Assembly (NCBI GenBank): GCA_964016885.1
Contig: OZ024742.1
Coordinates: 121,830,001 to 121,894,000, forward strand
Direction of reading: 5' to 3'
Origin: Eledone cirrhosa
Taxonomy: Eukaryota
DNA length: 64,000 nucleotides
In this document: in pieces, positions 10,307-53,761 of the stretch
How the letters are laid out: each line of letters starts with the position of its first letter
Position numbering within the stretch: the first letter of the stretch is position 1
The notes under the pieces: model-generated
What the model was told of the DNA's origin: nothing
What the model saw: the letters and a program-made list of their open reading frames with translations, nothing else
The model's database searches: none
Program-made: the position numbers and the translations under genes

Positions 10307-10364
10307 TTCATTTACCAGTGGTTTCTTGAAACCCAAAAAATCTACTTTCAGTCGTCAGAATGAA
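10307..10364 (-). ncRNA. Type-I hammerhead ribozyme motif
   Basis: Minus strand ttcatt-CTGACGA-ctgaaag..gtttcaa-GAAA-ccactggt-A-aatgaa, with GUA cleavage triplet and stem I ttcatt/aatgaa. Confidence 0.75.
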
Positions 10365-10667: not shown

Positions 10668-10956
10668 AACATACATATATATATATACATATATATATAT
10701 AAACATACATACACATACACATAAATAGACAAACACACACACACACACGGTCTTCAAAATGCTTTTAATTAAGCATAAAGTGTATTGCAAAATACATTAT
10801 ATATACATCCATATATATATTTCTATTTCAGAGCTCCAATTCTAATTTTTAATTTCTGCCTGACCAACAACCGCTCTGCATACTCAGCTACTGATTATTT
10901 ACTAGACTTCTATAAGAATATAACATCAATGATCTCAGCAGACAGGTGGGGTAGTT

Positions 10957-11000
10957 GGCCTTGATAAGCTTCAACCAAAGCGAAACAAGTCTTGTCGGCT
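10957..11000 (+). ncRNA. Type-I hammerhead ribozyme (U3:A8 core)
   Basis: ggcc-TTGATAA-gctt caacca aagc-GAAA-caagtcttgt-C-ggct. Stem I is extended by gatctcagcagacagg/cctgtttgctgagatc (10931-11023). Confidence 0.8.
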
Positions 11001-11272
11001 TATCTCCCCTGTTTGCTGAGATCAAAGTGAGTGAATTCGTCACTACTTTAAAACAATAGCTTACGGTCTTCAAAATGCTTTTAATTAAGCATAAAGTGTA
11101 TTGCAAAATACATTATATATACATCCATATATATATTGCTATTTCAGAGTTCCAATTCTAATTTTTAATTTCTGCCTGACCAACAACCGCTCTGCATAAT
11201 CAGCTCCTGATTATTTACTAGACTTCTATAAGAATATAACATCAATGATCTCAGCAGACAGGTGGGGTAGTT

Positions 11273-11316
11273 GGCCTTGATAAGCTTCAACCAAAGCGAA
11301 ACAAGTCTTGTCGGCT
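11273..11316 (+). ncRNA. Type-I hammerhead ribozyme (second tandem copy)
   Basis: Identical core to 10957-11000, 316 bp downstream. Confidence 0.8.
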
Positions 11317-11440
11317 TATCTCCCCTGCTTGCTGAGATCAAAGTGAGTGAATTTGTCACTACTTTAAAACAATAGCTTACGGTCTTCAAAATGCTTTTAA
11401 TTAAGCATAAAGTGTATTCCAAAATACATTATATATACAT

Positions 11441-11513
<73 letters not shown>

Positions 11514-12536: not shown

Positions 12537-15341
12537 CACACATATATATATACATACATATACACACACATACATAAAGTTGCATCACCACATATATATA
12601 AAAAACATACACACACATAAACACACACACACACACACACACATACACACACATACACATATATATATATATATATAAGTACATACATATACAAACATAT
12701 ATACATAAACATACATATACACGCACAAAAATTACACACTCACATAAGTACATATATATACATACATACACATACATATACATATACACATACATACATA
12801 TATATACATACACACAGAAATATATATCTATATATAAAATAGGGTGGGTGGGTGTGTAAAGGGTAAGGTAGAAAGTAGGGGGGAATATAATCAACAGAAA
12901 TATAAATAACATAGGAAAAAATATAAATATAAGAGGAGATGAGGGAGAAAAAGAAATTATGGGTAAATAATGTGAGTTCAGAGAGTAATAATAATCGTAG
13001 AGGATGTAAGGCGTAATGAGTAAAGAAGTTCAAGGTGGTTGAGTCATCGTAGGAATGTCAATCCACTTACAAAGTAGATGTGATTTCAGATGAGGACAAC
13101 ATTTAAAGGTCTCGGTCTTGGAGTTAAGGCAAGTGGAAGTGGCTTTCCAATTTGGAGAATTCTAAATTTTTTCCGTGGTGCACAAAGCACAATTCTTTGT
13201 GCCCCTTTGGTATTCTCTTGAATGGTCTAAAATAGACCAATCGATAGTGTACGGGATGTTTTTGTCTTTGAATTCCCACACTTTATTTGCGAGAGCCGTT
13301 GATGTTCTTTTATCAGAGTGTTTAAAAGAAGCGACATGTGCATAAAACCTGGTTTTGAACCTGTCCTGTGTCATGCCAACATATCGTTCACGCCTGGCTG
13401 GCTGGTTGTTAATCAACGGTGTCAATTTGGCCTCACACACAACGGATTTAGTATTACATTTGCCCTGTAATGGGCATTATTCCGTCTTCCTGCAACTACA
13501 TCCTGGATTTACTCTCGTACGATTAGAGTTGGTAATTTTAGTCTTCATTGATGGACAGCAAGAGTAACTGATTTTGACTACATTTCTATTAAATATCTTA
13601 TAATATCTATGATTAGGGGGAAAATATTTGTCTAGGAGGTCGAGGAATTTCCTTCCTACATTAGTTTTGACAGTTAGAGAGAAGGGGGTGTAAACCAAAT
13701 AAATTTCCTTTTGCTTAGTTTGTGATTAGTTTTAGAGGAAGGAGTAGGTAAATATTTAATATATTCTGTAAAGCCGCTGTTATTGAGGGCCTTATTATAA
13801 TAAGGGGCGGCTTTGTTAAAAATGTCTAGAGACGAAGATTAGGTAGAAATCCTACGGCTAATATTGGGAATAAGATTTTTAAAAACTGTAGGGGTATGGC
13901 AAGACTCTTTGTGTATATATCTTAGATTTTCGTTAGGTTTATGATAAGGTTTAAAAGAGGCAGTAAGTAGATCAAGATTAATATCAAGAAAGTTAGCATT
14001 AGTAAGGTTCGTATCTATAGTAATTTTAAGGTTTTGGTTAGCAAAAGTATTGATTAAATCTTTACAGAATTTATCAAGGTTATGGCCGTTGGTGGTATGA
14101 GAAACTGCCAATCCGGCGTCTCGGTATAAACCGATATTATGGAAAGGAAATGTCTCTTTAAGGGTGTGGAGAAGGAATAATCCTACTAAGTCGCACACAC
14201 CAGCACTGTCATATGAACCCATCGCAACATCAAAAGAGTTTTCAGGGCTTGACTTTTTAACCCAAATACTTTCATTAGTAAAGAGTAGAGTTTTTCCTAG
14301 CATGAAAGATAATGTATTCTTCTAATTTAGAAATATTAATGAAAGGTCTTGCAAAATCTAAGGCTTTGTTAATAAGGAAACAGTAATAGAGGGGTGAAAA
14401 TCAACAATATCAAATTGGGTAAATCTACACTTAATTTTACCTTGTATATTGCTAAACCAAGAAATAACAGGATGTATTTAACCATTGTGATAAGTCAGTC
14501 TTAGTTCTAATTTGGAGTATTATTTTTCTTAAGATTAGAGCGGTGAATTGGCAGTATCGGTAGAGGGTTGGACGCCATGCTTTCTAGAATAGTTACGTCC
14601 CTTTACAGTCTGAGTTCAAATCCCGCCGAGGTTAACTTTGCCTTTCATCCTTACGGGGTCGATAAAATAAAGTACCAGTAATGTACTGGGTAATTGCTGG
14701 CATTGTGCCTAAAGTAGAAACAATTATTTTTCTTAAGATTTTTTTTACTAGCAAGGCCAACTTCAGATTTAGCCGGGTTAATTAGTCTACAGCTAGGTCG
14801 AGTAGTGAAGTCAGATTTATAGTCTTTTAGGGTAATATATTCTTTACGTTTAGTTAGGCTTTCAATCCGGTTATCTATTTAAAAAATATTAGCTAGGTCT
14901 TTAGCTTCTTTATTAATCGTATTGTAGGTGTTATTGTTAGCTAATTGATATTTGTTGGTGATACTATCTGTTAAAAGTTGGTTATACAAAATACTATTTA
15001 CTTCAAATAGATTTTTAGTTTTATCGGAAAGAACGAAAGTGTTTGTAGAATTTTTAAAATTAGAAATATCGTTAGAAAGTTTGAAGGTTATTGTTGTACT
15101 TACGAAATTTGATTTCACTAATTAAATTAACAAGATCCAATTCGAAGTTGGCCATGTCTTTATTCTAGGTGAGTATATGCGGGATTTAATGTCAAAACAA
15201 TCATTTGTATCAGCACTGAATAGTCCATCGTAACCATTGCCTTCCATCTCATTCTTTTAACGACTTGTTCGATTTTATCTATAAGCAGTTTGGTATAAGT
15301 TGTGTTTGAAGGAGTAGGTATATTTTTGATAGAATAATCCA

Positions 15342-16400: not shown

Positions 16401-16469
16401 CTTAGGTTAGTAGGAGTTAGGTATTATATACCCGTGTCCCGTTAAGGTATTGGCAAAAGAAGGAAAAAC

Positions 16470-17258
16470 ATGTATGTTAACCCACCTTTTAACTCCGAGG
16501 TCCTCACTAGTCTCCCCAGAGTATTCTTCTCATTATTGGAAAAAAACTTCCCACCAGGCAATAGATACCGCAACATAATTAACAAAAACGTAATTAAATT
16601 ATCCTATTCGACCACACCTAACCTCGCATCACACCTAGCACGTACGAACATTAGGAAAACTAAGGAGGGATTCGAAGCAATTAAAATGGCAGTTAACCAC
16701 CAGCAACCGACTACACTAGAAAATGGGCAACATAATAGCATCAATGAGCCATCTAATGATATAGAGGCACCTAGTGATAATGCGAGTAACCAAACTTCGG
16801 GAGGTAAGCTAACTAATCGAACCCGCAGTTGCAATTGTAGGCGGAGTAGTAACTGTCCCCTAAGGGGGGATTGCCTCACGAAAAACATAGTATATGCATG
16901 TGACGTAACCACACACAACTCTACCAAAACATATATAGGAGCAACGTCCAATACATTTAAAACTAGATTTAACGCGCATATGTACACATTTAGACACGAC
17001 AGACATAAGAATGCCACCTCACTGGCGGGATGCATCTCCTTCTTAAAAAATAATAGTACCCCATACAATCTTTTTTGGAGGAAGCTTACTAAATCCACGC
17101 CATACCGACCGCAGAGCGGAAGTTGTGACCTGTGTTTACTGGAATGCCATGCCATAATACACTCTAAACTGAACCTGCTTAACAGGAAATCGGAAATTTT
17201 CTCCTCATGCCAACACAAAATCCTGAGTTCCTTCTTCTATTTTAAACCTAGCACATAG
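16470..17258 (+). mobile_element. PLE C-terminal fragment (thumb end, Cys linker, GIY-YIG)
   Basis: NPPFNSEV, CNCRRSSNCPLRGDC, YIGATSNTFKTRFNAH and CDLCLLE; 5'-truncated. Confidence 0.9.
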
Positions 17259-23251: not shown

Positions 23252-23340
<89 letters not shown>

Positions 23341-23571
23341 GAGTTAATCAAGATTCAATGAGTACATCAAAGAATGAGTTTTACAGTAGATAGGAAGCAC
23401 TCTACATAAAAACTTTTCCAGAGTTATTAATATTTAAATACAAATATTAATAAAATAGATGTTCTTTTACATCAATTAAATTTTATTATACATATTTCGG
23501 AGGATTTAATCAAGGTACCTTGATTAAATCTTAACCATTTAACATCTCAGGGTATGTCATGTATCATTATA

Positions 23572-23620
23572 TTTTGTCTGATGAGGACGTACTGTTGTAC
23601 CTCCGAAATATGTATAATAA
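23572..23620 (+). ncRNA. Type-I hammerhead motif
   Basis: ttgt-CTGATGA-ggacgtac tgtt gtacctcc-GAAA-tatgtat-A-ataa. Confidence 0.7.
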
Positions 23621-23730
23621 CATTTTATTGATCAAAAGAACATTTATTTTATTAATATTTGTATTTTAATATTATATATATATATATACGATATTAACAA
23701 ATGGAAACTATATTTATAAAACCATATTTA

Positions 23731-23791
23731 TTTTATTATACATATTTCAAGGACACCAGGTTAAATTATGGTGTGCTTTCATCAGACAAAA
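23731..23791 (-). ncRNA. Type-I hammerhead motif
   Basis: ttttgt-CTGATGA-aagcacacca..tggtgtcctt-GAAA-tatgtat-A-ataaaa. It has the same flanks as 23572 but a different, still paired stem II. Confidence 0.7.
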
Positions 23792-24119
23792 TACAATATA
23801 GATCAGTTTTATAAATAAATATTGACATACCCTTAAAAAATGCAACCATTACTGTTGGAAGCTCCCGGATAGTGGAGTTGTTTACTTATATTATTATTAG
23901 TATTGGATATTTTAAAATAAGTCGTTGGGTTAGAGAGAAAGAAAGAGAGAGAGAAAAAGACAGAGAAAAGAAAGAAAAAAAAAGAAAAAAAGAAAGAAAA
24001 GAGAGTGAGAGATACCAAAACAACAGAGAGAGAAAAATATAGAGGTAGAGAGGGGACAGAGAGAAGGGGAGAGAACGAAAACATTAAGTCATCAATCGGA
24101 GATGACTTGTTAGGAAGGC

Positions 24120-29038: not shown

Positions 29039-29185
29039 TATATATATATATATATATATATGTGAAGATAGACATAGAATATTCGAAAATATTCTGTATG
29101 TTTATAATAACATTTTGAAGACCTAATCGCTATAGAATAGAATACGTCACGTATTACAATTAGATTCTCGATAAAAGCAAGGGAA

Positions 29186-29228
29186 GTAATCTACGCGTTT
29201 CATTCTTATTAGAAATCTTCAGGATTAC
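29186..29228 (-). ncRNA. Type-I hammerhead ribozyme
   Basis: Reverse complement of 29381-29423. Confidence 0.8.
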
Positions 29229-29380
29229 ATATCCAGTGCTTTTATCGAGAATGACACAGCTAGAGACTTATAGAATACTTAGCTGTGTACAGGAACTGGT
29301 TTGAAAGAGCGGTTGCCGGTCCGGCAGAAATTAGAAATTGGATTAAATGCTCTGAAATGCTCGATAAAAGCACTGGATAT

Positions 29381-29423
29381 GTAATCCTGAAGATTTCTAA
29401 TAAGAATGAAACGCGTAGATTAC
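29381..29423 (+). ncRNA. Type-I hammerhead ribozyme, canonical core
   Basis: gtaatc-CTGAAGA-tttct aata agaat-GAAA-cgcgt-A-gattac, with stem III palindrome ACGCGT and extended stem ctcgataaaagca/tgcttttatcgag. Confidence 0.85.
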
Positions 29424-29690
29424 TTCCCTTGCTTTTATCGAGAATCTAATTGTAATACGTGACGTATTCTATTCTATAGCGATTAGGTCTTCAAAATGTT
29501 TATTATAAACATACAGAATATTTTCGAATATTCTATGTCTATCTTCACATATATATCGCTATTTCAGAGCATTTAATCCAATTTCTAATTTCTGCCGGAC
29601 CGGCAACCGCTCTTTCAAACCAGTTCCTGTACACAGCTAAGTATTCTATAAGTCTCTAGCTGTGTCATTCTCGATAAAAGCACTGGATAT

Positions 29691-29733
29691 GTAATCCTGA
29701 AGATTTCTAATAAGAATGAAACGCGTAGATTAC
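29691..29733 (+). ncRNA. Type-I hammerhead ribozyme (second tandem copy)
   Basis: Identical to 29381-29423, 310 bp downstream. Confidence 0.85.
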
Positions 29734-29893
29734 TTCCCTTGCTTTTATCGAGAATCTAATTGTAATACGTGACGTATTCTATTCTATAGCGATTAGGTCT
29801 TCAAAATGTTTATTATAAACATACAGAATATTTTCGAATATTCTATGTCTATCTTCACATATATATCGCTATTTCAGAGCATTTAATCCAATT

Positions 29894-30051
<158 letters not shown>

Positions 30052-30503: not shown

Positions 30504-30825
30504 GGAAAAAAATGAAACAAAATTTCATTTCCCACTCCCAGTACGGCTGTTACTTAAATATAAGTATGTACACGTACATACATATATGTATACAGACGCA
30601 CAGTAGTATGTATATATATATACATACATGCACACATATATATATATGTACGTATGGATTCACCGAACATTTATTGTAATGCTCGGTGTGTTTGTAAGCA
30701 TTATAATAAATGTTCGGTGAATCCATACGTACATATATATATGTGTGCATGTATGTATATATATATATACATACTACTGTGCGTCTGTATACATATATGT
30801 ATGTACGTGTACATACTTATATATA
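30500..30825. repeat. Fold-back fragment of the 460-bp family
   Basis: Homologous to 15560-15760. IR arms lie at ~30560-30683 and 30698-30822. Confidence 0.75.
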
Positions 30826-30831
30826 TATATA

Positions 30832-34630
<3,799 letters not shown>

Positions 34631-35078: not shown

Positions 35079-36940
35079 TAAAATAGCAGATTAAAGTTTA
35101 AGCAAAGAATCGCTGCTTTCACCCTTAACGGGATCTTCTGAAACTAACAAAGTCAATCTGTAAACGGTGAAAAACAATACGCGCAAAGACAGAACCACGT
35201 TTATAGTATAATAGAGGTAAGCATTTTCCCCCTACAAATAAATATAGTAAAATTTTTAATAGAAATACTATTAAACTTTTTTACTCTACGACTCCTAACC
35301 TTGCACATAACATCACAGCTTCAAATTTAGCTAAACTACCTAGCCGTAGGAACACGTGCAACCCTGTAGTTAGTACTAACTGTAATTGTAGGAATCGGGT
35401 TGATTGCCCCCTATCCGGTAAATGGCTCTCTAGTAACATTGTCTACAAATGTAAGGTTGTAACACCCACGTCCCGTAGGGCCTACATAGGGTTAACCGCC
35501 AATAGATTCAAGCAGCGTCTTTACATGCATACCCATTCTTTTCGTTACCCTCTAAGAAGGAATATGACGTCACTTTCAGCTTATATCTGGAGTCTAAAAG
35601 ACAACCATACCCAATATCAGTTACACTGGGAGATCCTTGCGAGGGCTAGATCGTATAACGGAAATAAAAGACCATGTGACCTCTGCGCCGCTGAGGCCCT
35701 GGAAATACTCTACGCCACAGACCACATCTTAAACAAAAAATCTGAGGCAATTTCGGCTTGTAAACATAAATTGCACAAAACATTCCTGTATTACAGCCCC
35801 ACGTTATACCCTAACGGATAGTACGATCTATACGTGGATATTTTACGTCTTGATGTGGGAGCTAAGTATATGTTTTGTTTATACCTTTACTTATTTGCAT
35901 AGGTAAGTATATATTATCCGTATGTTTTGTGAAGGTACGTATACCTTCTCGTACGTATATTTGATTGTTATGGCGTATAATTTTTATTTATTTATTTTTA
36001 TTTTTTATTTTAATATATTCTGGTACATATGGTTCGACTATGTGTATACGGGAGTTTTGCGTCTGTGTGAGTATGCAGGTTCGTACGTATGTAGGGCGTG
36101 TGTATATGTGTACTTCATGTTTTGGTTGACTTACGTCTCCGAACATTCGTGTATTTACATGTAGGTATATGTGGGCGCTTGTTATATATGTATTTATTTA
36201 TTAATATACGTTTATATAATTATTTATTTATTTGTATACACGCTTGCACACACACACATATTTATATGTGCGTGATTTTGTTTACCTATGGTAAGTTTTT
36301 GCGTATGCTTGTGTATGTACGTTTCTGTTTGCGTGTATGTATTTATTTATTTCTATTACTTCTGTATTGTATTTATTTACTTTGTTCTTAACTCCGTAGC
36401 GGAGATTCATTCGGTCTCCTAGTTAGAATTTAGTCTACGACTTCTGCTATATCATTTACGTGGTTTTGTCTTTGCGTGCTATTGTTCTCCACGCTCCACA
36501 TATGACGTATTATCTTCGTTTTTTTCGTTCATCGCCAGAGAACGTCTCTATGCACCACATAAGAGAACATTAGTCTACGACCTCTATTATACTATAAACG
36601 TGGTTCTGTCTTTGCGCGTATTGTTTTTCACCGCTCCTATTAATGACGTATTATATTCGTTTTTTCCCGTTCTTAGCCAGCGAACGTTTCCACGAACCAA
36701 AGTATCGTCTTCCTGTCTTCCTCCGGTTGCAACGTTTTTTGAAATATCCAGTTCTGCGTTTACAGATTGACTTTGTTAGTTTCAGAAGATCCCGTTAAGG
36801 GTGAAAGCAGCGATTCTTTGCTTAAACTTTAATCTGTTATTTTAATAAATATTTTCTCTACGGTTCTTATATATTTGATATATATTTATCCTTATCGAGC
36901 CCTCTTTGGATTTTAGTCTTCAAATTTATTATTATTACTA
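35079..36940 (+). mobile_element. 5'-truncated PLE (GIY-YIG + 3' UTR) with inverted 3'-end pieces at its 5' junction
   Basis: CNCRNRVDCPL, YIGLTANRFKQR, TSLSAYIWSLK and CDLCAAE. 35079-35166 is the reverse complement of 36757-36845, and 35166-35218 of 36581-36633. A 140-bp tandem duplication starts at 36431/36571. Confidence 0.85.
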
Positions 36941-41620: not shown

Positions 41621-42807
41621 TTTTCTCTTTCTCTTAATTTCGAGTATATTTTTTTTGACCGGCCACCTTCCTGGTGGCAAGGTTGTAAAAGAAAAGAAAT
41701 TGTCATCCCTTGAATCGCAAGAATGTTTTGCATATTTTGAAGGTGCCAGCTATCGCAGCCATTTGTAGACTATGAATTAGGGAGCTGGGCTTTTTGTCCG
41801 CAAATCCAAGTTCGGTCATACTTTGGTCCAAGCGGGTTGGTATATAACCCGTAGCACCAATAATGATGGGTATGAAGCTAAAGGTGTATCTTGGATACTG
41901 GATTTGTAAGCTCCTCATCAATGGTCCGTAGATGTCCTCCTTCTCCTGTATTTTTCTGACAACGTTTACATCAAGTGGGCAACTGATCTCCACAACAGAA
42001 CACGTGTTCAATGTGTGGTCCCAAACTACAATATCAGGCCGGTTGTGCTTTAATTTGGTGGCAGTTTTTATTTTCAGGTTCCACCAGTATTCCTTAGTGC
42101 CATCTGTCTCAATATATTCTTCCTCGTTTGTTGTTAATTTTGTTTTCCGAAGTGCGTTCCAGATAGTTCTAGCTATCCCATCGTGTCTCATGGGGAGGTA
42201 GTAGCGAGATGACATTCTTTCGCAGCTGGCAACAATGTGGCTTACATCCTCGATCTTTGTTTTACATAGCCTACATTTATTGTCAGCTGCTGGCCCTCCT
42301 CTTTTGTGCAGCAGATATTTGGTAGGGAGTTCTTGTTCCTGTATTGCATAGAGATATCCCTCAAGGTGTGATGTCATAAACTTGTCGGAACTCCATGCCA
42401 GGCTTTTTGAGTGGTTTATCCCCTCTATGGTCTGTGTTTTACGCCTCAAGTATCCATGCACAACTTTCTCTGTAAATTGGTCAATTTTTTTTTCTTGTTT
42501 GAACATTGAATAGGATCTTCCGATTTCTCTGGGTGAGAGATTTATATCAGGCTTTATTCCATATCTCTCCTCCAGATCAGTCGCTATTCTAATGATATTT
42601 CTTTTTTCATGCTCATAAACCTGAGCAAGATGGTCGCCAACCTTTTTCCTCTGTTGAAGGTGTTGCTTCAGTGTTACTATCCGGGTCTCATATGTTGTTA
42701 ATATTGATTTTAGACCCCGGCCACCTTCCTTGCGTGAGAAGTATAGCCTATCCACATCACCATTGATGTTAAAGTTCCCAGTAACACTGAGAAGTTTTCG
42801 AGTTCTA
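41621..42807 (-). mobile_element. 5'-truncated copy of the young R4/Dong element
   Basis: Near-identical to 42870-44057 apart from a few SNPs, and bounded on both sides by (TATG)n. Confidence 0.93.
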
Positions 42808-42869
42808 TGTATGTATGTATGTATGTATGTATGTATGTATGTATGTATGTATGTATGTATGTATGTATG

Positions 42870-45800
42870 TTTTCTCTTTCTCTTAATTTCGAGTATATTT
42901 TTTTGACCGGCCACCTTCCTGGTGGCAAGGTTGTAAAAGAAAAGAAATTGTCATCCCTTGAATTGCAAGAATGTTTTGCATATTTTGAAGGTGCCAGCTA
43001 TCGCAGCCATTTGTAGACTATGAATTAGGGAGCTGCGCTTTTTGTCCGCAAATCCAAGTTCGGTCATACTTTGGTCCAAGCGGGTTGGTATATAGCCCGT
43101 AGCACCAATAATGATGGGTATGAAGCTAAAGGTGTATCTTGGATACTGGATTTGTAAGCTCCTCATCAATGGTCCGTAGATGTCCTCCTTCTCCTGTATT
43201 TTTCTGACAACGTTTACATCAAGTGGGCAGCTGATCTCCACAACAGAGCACGTTTTCAATGTGTGGTCCCAAACTACAATATCAGGCCGGTTGTGCTTTA
43301 ATTTGGTGGCAGTTTTTATTTTCAGGTTCCACCAGTATTCCTTAGTGCCATCTGTCTCAATATATTCTTCCTCGTTTGTTGTTAATTTTGTTTTCCGAAG
43401 TGCGTTCCAGATAGTTCTAGCTATCCCATCGTGTCTCATGGGGAGGTAGTAGCGAGATGACATTCTTTCGCAGCTGGCAACAATGTGGCTTACATCCTCG
43501 ATCTTTGTTTTACATAGCCTACATTTATTGTCAGCTGCTGGCCCTCCTCTTTTGTGCAGCAGATATTTGGTAGGGAGTTCTTGTTCCTGTATTGCATAGA
43601 GATATCCCTCAAGGTGTGATGTCATAAACTTGTCGGAACTCCATGCCAGGCTTTTTGAGTGGTTTATCCCCTCTATGGTCTGTGTTTTACGCCTCAAGTA
43701 TCCATGCACAACTTTCTCTGTAAATTGGTCAATTTTTTTTTCTTGTTTGAACATTGAATAGGATCTTCCGATTTCTCTGGGTGAGAGATTTATATCAGGC
43801 TTTATTCCATATCTCTCCTCCAGATCAGTCGCTATTCTAATGATATTTCTTTTTTCATGCTCATAAACCTGAGCAAGATGGTCGCCAACCTTTTTCCTCT
43901 GTTGAAGGTGTTGCTTCAGTGTTACTATCCGGGTCTCATATGTTGTTAATATTGATTTTAGACCCCGGCCACCTTCCTTGCGTGAGAAGTATAGCCTATC
44001 CACATCACCATTGATGTTAAAGTTCCCAGTAACACTGAGAAGTTTTCGAGTTCTAACATCCATCTCACTTAGTTCTTGCAATGACCAGTTCAGTAGGCCA
44101 AATGTTGGCGTTAGAATTGGCACAGCATAGGTATTGTGGGCAATGTATTTGTTGTATGCTGACAGTTCTGATGACCATATTTTTTTTACTCTTCTGAGGT
44201 ATTCAGTTCTGGTTCTCTCCTTATTTATGGGTCCATCATATCTGACATTCTCATCCTGTCCAAGATATCTGTAGTTGTCACCTGACTGCAGAGGTTGTAT
44301 TGTCAGGCCGTTCATCTCTAGATTTCTAGAGGAGGGCACAGCTCTTCCACGTTTTACTGCCAAATATGCACACTTGGACTCACCAAATTTCATTTTGATG
44401 TCGGTTGAAAATTGTGTAATGAGGTCCAATTGTTTCTTGATGTCATTGATATTTGGCCCATACAACTTCAGGTCATCAACAAAGAAAAGATGGGAGATAC
44501 TTCTGGGCCCACTTCTTTGTCCACCTTGTTTCCTGAGTAGGTAAGATAGTGGATTCAGTGAGAGAACGAAGAGTAGTACTGACAAGCTATCACCCTGAAA
44601 GATGCCCTTCTGGTAATGTATCCCATCAGTCTTAACCTGCTCCTTCTCACCTCTAAGGATCAAATTGGTGTACCAGTTCTTGGTCAGGCGTTCAACAGCA
44701 GCTACTAATGGTTGTGGGACTTTAGCTAACTGTAAAGCCTTAATAATCCACCCATGAGGTACACTATCAAATGCTTTTTGATAGTCCAGCCACACGACAG
44801 TCATGTTTCTGCGATTCTTTGTTGTTTTTTCCTGAATCATTTTGTTAGTTAGTAGGTGATCTATGCAACCCCACACCTCCCTCTTTCCACCAGCTTGCTC
44901 AGGTGTTATGATGTTGTTGGTAGCACAGTGATCCTGTAAGAACAGGTTAAGGCACCCAGTATATAATTTATACATGATGTTTTGGCAGGCAATTGGGCGG
45001 TAATTTTTAGCAAGGGTGGTTTGGCTATTTTTGGGAATGAGGAGAGTAGTGGCAGTTGATAACCATCTGGGCAGTTCTTGTGTGCCCTTAATGGTTTCTG
45101 TAAACAGCCGTATGAGATCTTGCCGATAGAAAGTGAAATTCTTCAACCAGTATCCTGTAATGAGGTCTGGGCCTGGCGATTTCCTATTCGACATTTTCTG
45201 TAGAGCTGTTTCCAGTATTGACCCATCTATGTCATATTGTTTTGTCTGGACATGTTGGCAGTAGTCCTGTTCCAGTTGTTTTAGCCAATTAGCTTGTCTG
45301 TTGAATCCGTCATCCGTTTCTCATACAGATCTCCAGTAGTTCTCAACCTGTTCTTTTGAAGGGGTGTCGTTTACAGGGATTGAACTTTTGCCACCGAAGC
45401 TGCGATAAACTGATTTAGGATCTCTGGCAAACAATCTATTTAGCACTTGTCGTTTATGGGCTGTTGACTTATATTTTAGTCTTTCTGTTGTAGCTGTGAG
45501 TTGTTGTTTCAACTGGTGTAATTTGGAGTTCAAAGTTTTAAATTTGGTATCTCCAAATCGTCTCTCTAACTTTTTCTTTAGGTCTTCCTGGTGTCGTGTG
45601 AAGTTTCTCTCTATGTTGCATTTCATAACGACTGCGATGTGTGAGATACTTCGTCTCAGGGACAAAATTTTGGTTTTTAAATTTCGCATCCACGCTGGTT
45701 CAGGCTTTCTGTTTGTATCTTGATTGCGTGGTTTTAGATGTGTGTTATATGATAGCAATGTGACAGCTGAAACATATAACAAAACATTGAGCGTTTCAAA

Positions 45801-46668
45801 TGTCGTTTCTACACCTTTAGATCGTATAGCCTTCAGATAATTGCCAGCTATTTCGTTCACCGCTTCCAATTCCAATTTAGTGGGTTCTTTACTGACTCTA
45901 GTGTTGTATGGTCTGTCACTCACATTAAGGCTGTGTATCTCTTGAAACATATCGTTCCATATCACTTGTAGGGTGCCCACAAGTTTTTGGTGCTCTGTTT
46001 GTTCAGTAGAGTCATGAATTGCAGCCTCGTTGTTGATGTGGTGACAATTACTACTAGAGTCAGCTGACCTTTCTCGCTGTTCTTCAGTGGAAGTGGGATG
46101 GATTTCAGCAAAATTGTTGGTGAGCTGTTCACTGTTAGATTTAGCTGGCCATTCTCTTTGTCTGTCAGTGGAGGTGGGGTGGTTGTCTACAAGGGCTGTA
46201 TTTGTAGTATCACTCGATTCCGTTAGATGTATCAATTTACATCTAATGATACGTTTTGCCTGTTCATTTAGATGCTTTGGAGAAAAGTCTAATTCTGGGT
46301 GTTTGGAGTTCCATAAAGTTTTTAGCCTTTGCATAAAACCGAACTTTTGGGGTTCAGATTGTTTGTATGCTTCATATAATTCTTTGTTAAGCTCGTAGCT
46401 CCACTGTATACAACGGTTGTAATTGCGATTTGGTCGAAGGAGACTTGTACTTTTTGCCATGATGAGTTCGTCTATTCACTAATATTTTGTATTTATTTTT
46501 TTAAAATAGTCGATGATCTTCTTTAAAAGTTACGACAAAGTTCTGTCAGAATCAAATTTAAAGTTATTCACAGCTTGGGTAATATTTCTTTTCAGTTAGT
46601 TTTAAATTCTACAACTGTGTTTTAAACGTTGTTCTTGAATCGTTTGAATCGAGAACAAAAAGAACCGT
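42870..46668 (-). mobile_element. Full-length R4/Dong-clade non-LTR retrotransposon in a (CATA)n microsatellite
   Basis: Single reading frame with RT and REL endonuclease, and (TATG)n on both sides. The 3' UTR has the hairpin gccacc-aggaa-ggtggc. Confidence 0.93.
42951..46460 (-). pseudogene. R4/Dong ORF (1170 codons): RT, CCHC knuckle and restriction-like endonuclease, with one in-frame TGA at 45321-45323
   Basis: The 379-aa and 747-aa ORFs are in one frame, joined by YWRSV*ETDDGFNRQANWLK. Motifs include KSPGPD, NYRPI, WLDYQKAFDSV, GIFQGDSLS, FFVDDLK, CRLC..EDVSHIVASC, RHD, RPDIV and EISCP..EKEDIY. Confidence 0.9.
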
Positions 46669-51373: not shown

Positions 51374-52779
51374 GTATGTATGTATGTATGTATGTACGTA
51401 TGTATGTATGTATGTATGTATGTATGTATGTTTGTGTGTATCTGTGCGTGAGTGTGTGTGTGTATGTTTGCATGTGTCTGTGAATGTCTATGTGTTTATG
51501 TATGTGTATATAAATTGAGAGTGATATAGATAGATAGACAGTCAGACACATAAATAAATAGATAGATAGATATATAGATAGATGGCTAGATATATTGATG
51601 GATATGTTGGTAGAAAAATATATTTGTCAACATACGAACATCAAACACATGTACAGGCAGACGCAGACAGATAAAGACTTTTAATTTCGCATGCATCCTG
51701 TCTCACAAGCAAAGATAATTATATGGTCTGAAGGTGCGACAAATATAAGATGTAAGTATAGGAGGCACCTAGGTTTCGGTGTAGTGGTAGACTATGTGAG
51801 GATGTCAATGGGGGTGTTACTCTAAGCAAGTTAAATCATGTTAGCTGTGGTGATAATTATAGATTTCTATAGGTGAAAGATGATCAGTAATCAGAAGATG
51901 ATTAATCACATGTATAGTGTTATAAGGCACCTTAAGAAAGGAGTGCTGTTAATAAGAATGGTTAGTTTTAGTGGACCATTAGATAATAGAATAAGTGAGA
52001 GAGTTAATGGAGGTGTAGTGAAACGAAGTATGTACTGGCTAGCTGAATGGAAATTTATAAGTGAAAGGCCATTGTAGTTATAGAGTAATAAGAATGTTTT
52101 CTTGCATGTTGTTTGATGTTCATACCGAAGAAAATCTCAAGTTGGAAATAGTGTCTAATGACAGATGTAAGAGAAACGATAGTGACCGAAATGCTAGCCC
52201 GGTATAAGATGATTTGCTCATTGTATTTTGCGACCAACTCCTCGTTATTTTCACGTCAGACTTCTGTAACAAATTTGGCGCCACGGTTGGACTTGTGTAA
52301 ATTAATCTCTTAAGAGTATATAAAAAATGAATTGCAGTAGAACTGGAGTCATGGAATGCCAAATTTGTGGTACTTTTATTAAGACCGTGCACATTACAAC
52401 TCTGCTCACAGATTGAGGTCTCTCAACACAGATTTGTAATTTATGTAGTCTTAATAAAATTACTACTAAAAAGAATATATATATATGTATGCATATATAT
52501 GTATATATATACATATGTACATATATACATATGTACACATATATATATATATATAAACAATTAAGTTAAAAATGTACATCTACATATGCATACTGAAATA
52601 CTAGTATGCATATGAATACACACACGTATACATATGTAGATGTAACAAGTCTTTCACTGGTTACTTTACTGTGAGTAACCCAGCTATTCTGTATGTAAAC
52701 ACACAGACAAACCGGTTTTAGAGTCATACTGGTTTTCGAGGAAACACCTTTCCTCTATTCTCCAGAAAGCCAGAAAAGG

Positions 52780-52824
52780 AACATTGAACTAGTTTCGTTG
52801 TTGTTACAACTCATCAGCAATATT
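52780..52824 (-). ncRNA. Type-I hammerhead ribozyme
   Basis: Reverse complement of 53372-53416. Confidence 0.85.
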
Positions 52825-53371
52825 TACCTATCTACCGGCCTTTCTGGAGAATCGTAAAAGCACATATCGTTATATGCTTTTTCTATGAAAATTAGTAGTG
52901 GGCAGACCAATTTGCATAGAGTGTGAGTACGCACCGGTTCAGCGGAGACGATAAAAACAAATAACGAAACGAAATTAAATTTCGTTTCGTTTGTAACTCA
53001 CTTTTGTATGACTGACGCTTAAACAATTAAGTTAAAAATGTACATCTACATATGCATACTGAAATACTAGTATGCATATGAATACACACACGTATACATA
53101 TGTAGATGTAACAAGTCTTTCACTGGTTACTTTACTGTGAGTAACCCAGCTATTCTGTATGTAAACACACAGACATCACGTCAGTCATACAAAAGTGAGT
53201 TACAAACGAAACGAAATTTAATTTCGTTTCGTTATTTGTTTTTATCGTCTCCGCTGAACCGGTGCGTACTCACACTCTATGCAAATTGGTCTGCCCACTA
53301 CTAATTTTCATAGAAAAAGCATATAACGATATGTGCTTTTACGATTCTCCAGAAAGGCCGGTAGATAGGTA

Positions 53372-53416
53372 AATATTGCTGATGAGTTGTAACAACAACG
53401 AAACTAGTTCAATGTT
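53372..53416 (+). ncRNA. Type-I hammerhead ribozyme, canonical core
   Basis: aatattg-CTGATGA-gttgt aaca acaac-GAAA-ctagt-T-caatgtt, with extended stem attctccagaaag/ctttctggagaat. Confidence 0.85.
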
Positions 53417-53704
53417 CCTTTTCTGGCTTTCTGGAGAATAGAGGAAAGGTGTTTCCTCGAAAACCAGTATGACTCTAAAAACCGGTTTGTCTGTGTGTTT
53501 ACATACAGAATAGCTGGGTTACTCACAGTAAAGTAACCAGTGAAAGACTTGTTACATCTACATATGTATACGTGTGTGTATTCATATGCATACTAGTATT
53601 TCAGTATGCATATGTAGATGTACATTTTTAATTTAATTGTTTAAGCGTCAGTCATACAAAAGTGAGTTACAAACGTAACGAAATTTAATTTCGTTTCGTT
53701 ATTT

Positions 53705-53761
<57 letters not shown>

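Follow-up and report, generated by a model that had tools for sequence, protein, structure and literature searches.

What kind of element is the short tandem repeat at 10747-11452 of the 64,000-nucleotide window (the whole stretch of Eledone cirrhosa DNA analysed here, to which all positions refer), and why do its stems differ in sequence from those of a related 310-bp repeat in the same window while staying paired? A sequence-only reading had placed a 316-bp repeat at 10748..11445 and had attributed its stems to selection on RNA structure. TRF supports the repeat itself, as a head-to-tail array of 2.2 copies with a period of 316 and 98% matches, and moves its end from 11445 to 11452. The whole insertion (10747..11452, + strand) is one-armed and 5′-truncated, with (CA)n joined at its 5′ side and (TA)n at its 3′ side, and it terminates at the family's "short" terminus, 140 nt past a predicted cut site. 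The unit is non-coding, lies within the 150-450 bp tandem range, carries one type I hammerhead and lacks an LTR; no stop-to-stop frame of 150 aa occurs across the element. The 316-bp repeat represents one copy of a young mobile element that is spread genome-wide and encodes no protein.

A descriptor scan of the window placed hammerhead cores at 10961 and 11277. The first hammerhead (10961..10996, + strand; descriptor scan, Rfam and alignment) has the core UUGAUAA with a U3:A8 pair, stem II at 10968-10971/10978-10981, the GAAA box at 10982-10985, a palindromic stem III at 10985-10995 and C17 at 10996; the second (11277..11312, + strand; descriptor scan and Rfam) is identical in sequence, with C17 at 11312. 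Around the first core, the ribozyme domain (10930..11024, + strand) comprises a long stem (10930-10946/11008-11024), a 3-nt 5′ bulge whose first letter is an invariant U at 10952, stem I (10955-10960/10997-11002) and U1.7 at 11003. Every element of a type I core is present: the 3:8 pair (here U-A), U4 G5 A6, A9, G12 A13 A14, A15.1-U16.1, H17 and three stems. U3 lies at 10961 and 11277. By hammerhead numbering the C17 positions given earlier hold, as does the U3:A8 assignment, and the anchors and three stems named at that time are present in the sequence. The Rfam model Hammerhead_HH9 aligns to both cores, with 24.6 bits (E 0.0012) at the first and 23.8 bits (E 0.0022) at the second against a gathering score of 52, and no Rfam match reaches gathering level anywhere in the 64-kb window; matches to SurA, IhtA, RUF21 and miRNA models fell far under their cut-offs and were discarded.

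Stem III is the part of the earlier fold that fails: drawn as ACAAG/CUUGU inside one ribozyme, it would leave a 1-nt loop, which is impossible. It can instead form 4 bp closed by a 3-nt loop or, as an 11-nt near-palindrome, pair with its counterpart in a second ribozyme, and it is palindromic in all subfamilies described below though its sequence changes. In constrained dimer folding, where the energies omit tertiary contacts, the double hammerhead of the 10747-11452 copy costs 3.7 kcal/mol relative to the free ensemble, compared with 14.3 for two single folds; the corresponding values are 1.9 and 18.8 for subfamily B2 and 1.0 and 16.5 for the 310-bp family. For our copy, the double hammerhead is predicted to be about 11 kcal/mol better than two single hammerheads. 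Motifs of this palindromic-stem-III type have been described as acting as dimers in tandem repeats (PMC4209133). In the model, a tandem transcript cleaves itself 3′ of 10996 and of 11312, and likely does so as a double hammerhead. The predicted excised monomer (10997..11312, + strand) is 316 nt long, and the fold of the unit beats all of 100 shuffles in two phases (z -6.2, and -5.4 for the phase of the monomer). In the modeled fold, stem I and the intact long stem juxtapose the monomer's ends, the arrangement that a ligase would need.

These same energies can be read another way: the repeat might be a PLE-derived, non-autonomous element copied from uncut multimers, with a hammerhead that is weak or serves only to trim precursors, and with no circle. 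At its lowest energy the B1 ribozyme (B1 being the 316-bp family) folds with the core strand paired to the 5′ half of stem III, which for the single domain is 6.8 kcal/mol more stable than the active fold, and this inactive fold remains the minimum even in the dimer, where it is preferred by 3.7 kcal/mol. The published precedents as described also lend this reading some weight: only one of nine predicted Xenopus retrozyme dimers cleaved in vitro, the other eight showing no cleavage (10.64898/2026.07.22.740005), and PLE hammerheads are reported to be weak in vitro (PMC4209133). Against it stands the fact that core, 3:8 pair and putative tertiary-contact letters have all persisted over about 40% divergence, which is hard to account for without selected catalysis. 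We return to it once the insertion ends have been described.

The outgroup is family A, the 310-bp relative, of which a two-armed insertion with the canonical C3:G8 core lies at 29053..29896. Alignable homology between the two units was a point on which the sequence-only reading depended, and it is there, scoring far above 300 shuffles (238 for the global alignment, versus 91.9 ± 10.8 and a maximum of 122). The units are collinear over their full length with their cores in register and 181 of 317 columns identical; blastn finds 74% identity over 129 bp (E 1e-17), and without the first 130 nt the score is 83 versus 46.3 ± 9.2 in shuffles (maximum 79). The segment best conserved with family A (10749..10877, + strand) contains three hairpins and all three anchors, at 10749-10761, 10823-10833 and 10850-10877. 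Stem III in family A is a 6-nt palindrome.

Further searches recovered four sister subfamilies, B2, B3, B4 and B5; identity to B1 is 87% for B2, 80% for B3 and 62% for family A. A tree of 23 units, midpoint-rooted and with one B2-labelled copy grouping with B1, has the form (A,(B5,(B3,(B4,(B2,B1))))). C3:G8 occurs in A, B5 and B3, and U3:A8 in B4, B2 and B1, whose units form a single branch (support 96/98); with family A as outgroup, this means that the swap from C3:G8 to U3:A8 happened once. Genome counts agree. An exact core pattern with positions 3 and 8 left free matches 619 copies, and the first 100 listed comprise 97 with U3:A8, three with G3:A8 and none with C3:G8; a B4-type sister pattern matches 601 copies, with U3 in all and A8 in 98 of the first 100 listed. 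Tree and counts together place a single origin of the U3:A8 core from C3:G8, retained through three subfamilies that continued to amplify afterwards.

The source assembly is large (3.0 Gb) and microsatellite-rich, and the 316-bp family is dispersed over many of its chromosomes in recently mobile copies. A DNA search of the genome gave at least 120 matches at 90-100% identity from the 40 candidates scored among 845, and the anchor common to this family and family A has 17,686 occurrences (0 for the reversed control). Part of the unit is also present in thirteen public runs under ten organism codes. When contigs from eight of the thirteen were compared, the core and GAAA box in the deepest run (843 contigs) carried no change reaching 10%, and at the fourth pair of stem III both partners, 10988 and 10992, had changed in four contigs of that run and one contig of another. 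Array-specific variants (L068:1817-2424; L132, C14 array; L212, C28 array) comprise tandem 304-bp deletion units, a long array of B2 with 28 units or more and a B4 array in decay, the last with expanded (TA)n inside its units at the short-terminus site.

Given this series of relatives, have the stems been maintained by compensatory change? When the ribozyme domains of 15 copies, drawn from six subfamilies and amounting to about six lineages, are aligned with MAFFT, 18 of 26 pairs show two-sided change and 97.4% of cells are paired. No shuffle among 500 was as high, a count that is not a probability or P value, and slid partners gave 35-44%. For the 15-bp long stem, comparison of B1 unit 1 with family A gives eight two-sided changes, one one-sided change and no break; there the 3′ strand was placed by best pairing, whereas the 26-pair test used the independent MAFFT register. 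The base of stem II in family A is U-U. While the stems turn over, the bulge U, three A's of loop II and the core letters are invariant in all 15 rows, and U1.7 is found in B1, B3 and A and displaced by one in B2 and B4; the bulge U, the loop II A's and U1.7 are candidate letters for the tertiary contact between the stem I bulge and loop II. In the end segment, the three hairpins have accumulated four two-sided changes and one swap of a GCAA loop for UUCG. Elsewhere the picture is patchier: one hairpin is paired in family A, B3 and partly B2 and broken in B1, an 8-bp hairpin is confined to the B lineage, and a 9-bp helix is confined to family A. The "wholesale compensatory changes" of the earlier reading are thus an overstatement, since three helices outside the ribozyme domain are not common to the families. 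Its selection on RNA structure is supported for the hammerhead, the long flanking stem and the three small hairpins, and lacks support at mid-unit, where each family has helices of its own.

Inverted repeats in DNA are homogenised by palindrome correction and template switching, and most of the covarying pairs sit in inverted repeats. Together with the family-specific helices at mid-unit, this could suggest that the repeat is an ordinary satellite whose apparent compensation arose at the DNA level, RNA being under no selection at all. The 3:8 pair, however, covaries in all 15 rows although it lies outside any DNA palindrome; wobble pairs are frequent (G-U in 9/15 and 5/15 rows at two pairs, for example); one hairpin has exchanged its GCAA loop for UUCG; and the family is scattered over chromosomes with fixed ends, unlike a satellite. 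We regard a purely DNA-level origin as very improbable. The alignment supports the view that paired changes have maintained the stems of the ribozyme domain from one sister family to the next.

The fixed ends point to how the element moves. Outer ends of insertions fall about 140 and 166 nt past the cut site, 26 nt apart; in unit 1 of our copy these are the short terminus at 10820 and the long terminus at 10846 (+ strand), and the 26-nt "tail" between them is seen in unit 2 at 11137..11162 (+ strand). Family A ends at 139 nt (short) and 165 nt (long; about 165-170), and B2 and B3 end at homologous places. Among 23 distinct insertions, counted after removal of seven duplicate loci, 16 are two-armed (back to back), and 14 of these 16 have one short and one long end. 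A cruder automated count of 67 insertions includes 36 two-armed ones, of which 23 are long plus short, three short plus short, 10 unclear or complex, and none purely long plus long. The outer flanks are mostly (TA)n. As described by Craig et al. 2021 (10.1101/2021.04.23.441226), PLEs form partial tandems with an inverted truncated copy, have a tail at one end only and are biased toward (TA)n, and the layout here has the same features: a tandem plus an inverted truncated copy, a one-sided tail and a microsatellite target. Since the best-conserved anchors flank the two fixed insertion ends, their conservation is likely due in part to the mobilising enzyme recognising them, and not to folding alone, and the anchors around both ends are likely recognition or priming sites. 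By analogy, the ends suggest that insertion is likely carried out by Penelope-type retrotransposon enzymes.

Units within an insertion resemble one another closely. Across 57 B1 units in 26 insertions, the difference within an insertion is 0.54% for units in the same direction and 1.24% for opposite arms (9 pairs), versus 2.11% between insertions. At 11 informative sites, allele sharing is 0.96-0.97 within an insertion, opposite arms included, versus 0.74 between insertions (0 of 2000 permutations), most of the same-direction pairs coming from two long arrays. This pattern fits one template per insertion, whether a circle or a homogeneous multimeric transcript. The near-identity of units within an insertion nevertheless weighs against copying from uncut multimers, even though the insertion ends do not coincide with the cut site, as that reading would have it. 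Weighing this with the retained catalytic letters, we think that reading rather unlikely.

On our preferred reading, which we hold with considerable confidence, the 316-bp repeat belongs to a protein-free animal non-LTR retrozyme, of which it is a young copy. Its tandem RNA is predicted to self-cleave 3′ of 10996 and 11312, a double hammerhead being the likely form, and PLE reverse transcriptase and endonuclease likely copy the RNA into new (TA)n sites. Read-through or internal Pol II transcription would first produce a multimer; runs of T4+ in the unit argue against Pol III. Adjacent ribozymes would then pair their palindromic stems III, cut and free the 316-nt monomer, whose juxtaposed ends a host ligase may close into a circle, as inferred from PMC7229834. 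In the final step, (TA)n DNA would be nicked by a PLE endonuclease and its ends would serve as primers at two TA-like sites, 140 and 166 nt past the cut, after which the reverse transcriptase would run round one template to give tandem arms, often two back to back; for this last step the fixed ends, two arms and shared alleles are observed, and the enzyme and circle are inferred. Pol III was considered because A-box-like letters precede the first anchor, and was rejected for want of a shared B box and because the T4+ runs would stop it. A bacterial promoter scan stayed at chance level and is irrelevant. Rare changes in the 57 units show no A>G excess that would indicate RNA editing (3 A>G, 6 G>A).

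PLEs abound in the genome. One young example, whose 775-aa frame is intact, displays a two-terminus pattern too, with a tail of about 60 nt rather than 26. Profile searches with the end segment and ribozyme domain, made on PLE-bearing loci (50 loci, then all 210 loci and the window with known subfamilies masked, then 60 more, a sample of the PLE families), gave more retrozyme subfamilies and no autonomous PLE carrying the anchors. An exclusion pattern joining the anchor to unfamiliar sequence gave 41 matches, all of them readable as known families altered by an indel, a point change or a junction; a partner with an altered anchor or with divergence further downstream would escape this pattern. 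The element at 30564-34270 was weighed as a partner and set aside for its tail of about 60 nt and lack of detectable homology, despite its two-end pattern and U3:A8 core. It is a 5′-truncated member of a PLE family that is very young, with many copies at 97-98% identity and intact 775-aa frames elsewhere, and Neptune-like by its linker motif; its terminal repeat has a U3:A8 hammerhead at 34100-34129 and two termini about 60 nt apart. PLE fragments with a CxCX5C linker, fitting the description of the Hydra clade, lie at 964-2341, 13000-14321 (- strand), 16446-17258 and 35207-35821, and one such fragment has 75,363 first-look candidates in the genome.

Other mobile elements share the window. At 52556-53708 lies a two-armed insertion of another hammerhead repeat with a unit of about 470 bp and cores near 52810 (- strand) and 53379 (+ strand); a motif like the end segment of the 316-bp family sits about 190 nt past its cut, so it is possibly a distant relative. 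Two facing hammerheads (23578, + strand; 23785, - strand) occur in related AT-rich repeats at 23337-23830, adjoining a (TA)n run, and similar motifs recur at loci L011, L021 and L061. A short fold-back element with a hammerhead core at 34497-34577 has a U-U base of stem II like family A and relatives in L010, L066 and L279. Single hammerhead motifs at 10358 (- strand) and 19539 (+ strand) belong to other repeat families, and the flanks of sampled loci indicate at least 10 distinct hammerhead families in the genome. A non-LTR retrotransposon with RVT_1 and zf-RVT domains, its 3′ part tandemly duplicated, occupies 41703-46475 (- strand).

The inactive fold of B1 could have a function of its own: the core swap may be part of a built-in off switch, such that the monomer circle blocks itself and only tandem transcripts cut, as double hammerheads. 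In the B lineage, core positions 2.1 to 5 pair with the 5′ half of stem III, and along the tree the 3:15.4 pair runs from C-G through U-G to U-A and the 2.1:15.5 pair from U-A through U-G to C-G. Several controls weaken the proposal: among 300 random variants that preserve the structure, 12% favour a non-ribozyme fold equally strongly; the 3:15.4 pair is broken in seven of 22 sampled B4 ribozymes and in one B1 sub-branch, and it is absent from family A; and three of four informative substitutions preserve pairing, for which chance would be about 0.1-0.3 (a hand calculation). We consider the off switch doubtful. PMC7229834 describes metazoan circles as probably blocked by something other than self-pairing, and against that background a conserved block would be new. 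If it were true, sequence alone would explain how animal retrozyme circles avoid cutting themselves, and the subfamilies would form a natural dated series of catalytic-core change in a ribozyme; a real self-blocking fold would bear on a point left open in PMC7229834 as it discusses the matter, namely how metazoan circles avoid linearising.

How does the family compare with known systems? By a testable definition it is a metazoan non-LTR retrozyme with the footprint of a non-autonomous PLE and predicted self-cleavage, and both the class and the U3:A8 core are already published. Cervera and de la Pena 2020 (PMC7229834) report retrozyme circles from coral, mussel and axolotl. Literature searches turned up no account of the 316-bp family, though mollusc families may be listed in supplements to the retrozyme papers. 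For the most part it is an unremarkable representative of a known class, but its history is well resolved: in one genome, six related subfamilies document a single core-pair change together with paired changes in every ribozyme stem, and they could be assayed side by side. The fixed ends and two arms offer a direct, testable link between retrozymes and Penelope enzymes, which the papers, where they raise it, propose without mechanistic proof.

As in the metazoan retrozymes described in PMC7229834 and 10.64898/2026.07.22.740005, the units here are non-coding, about 300 bp, tandem and low in GC with one type I hammerhead each, and they form dispersed short arrays that co-occur with PLEs and have a dimer-type ribozyme as in axolotl. 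Unlike those described, U3:A8 is fixed in three subfamilies and stem III is a long (11-12 nt) palindrome; B1 has a predicted inactive, self-paired fold, whereas most metazoan circles are, according to PMC7229834, predicted to keep their ribozyme free; and two-armed insertions with fixed ends are without counterpart in the descriptions of these two sources. The compensated core pair is the one already reported as natural by Perreault et al. 2011 (PMC3088659), where U3-A8 variants are said to have been proven active in vitro earlier, and in the Cercyon PLE motifs of Schistosoma (Cervera and de la Pena 2014, PMC4209133). The Cercyon motifs are presented as minimal, heterogeneous and mostly single, whereas ours are full type I, homogeneous and tandem, with an origin placed on a tree. 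With the EN+ PLEs of the Neptune and Hydra clades, as characterised in 10.1101/2021.04.23.441226, the family shares partial tandems, an inverted 5′-truncated copy, a tail at one end, (TA)n targets and a hammerhead near the 3′ end; it differs from them in having no ORF, a 26-nt tail rather than one of 30-40, and no match to the PLE terminal repeats compared.
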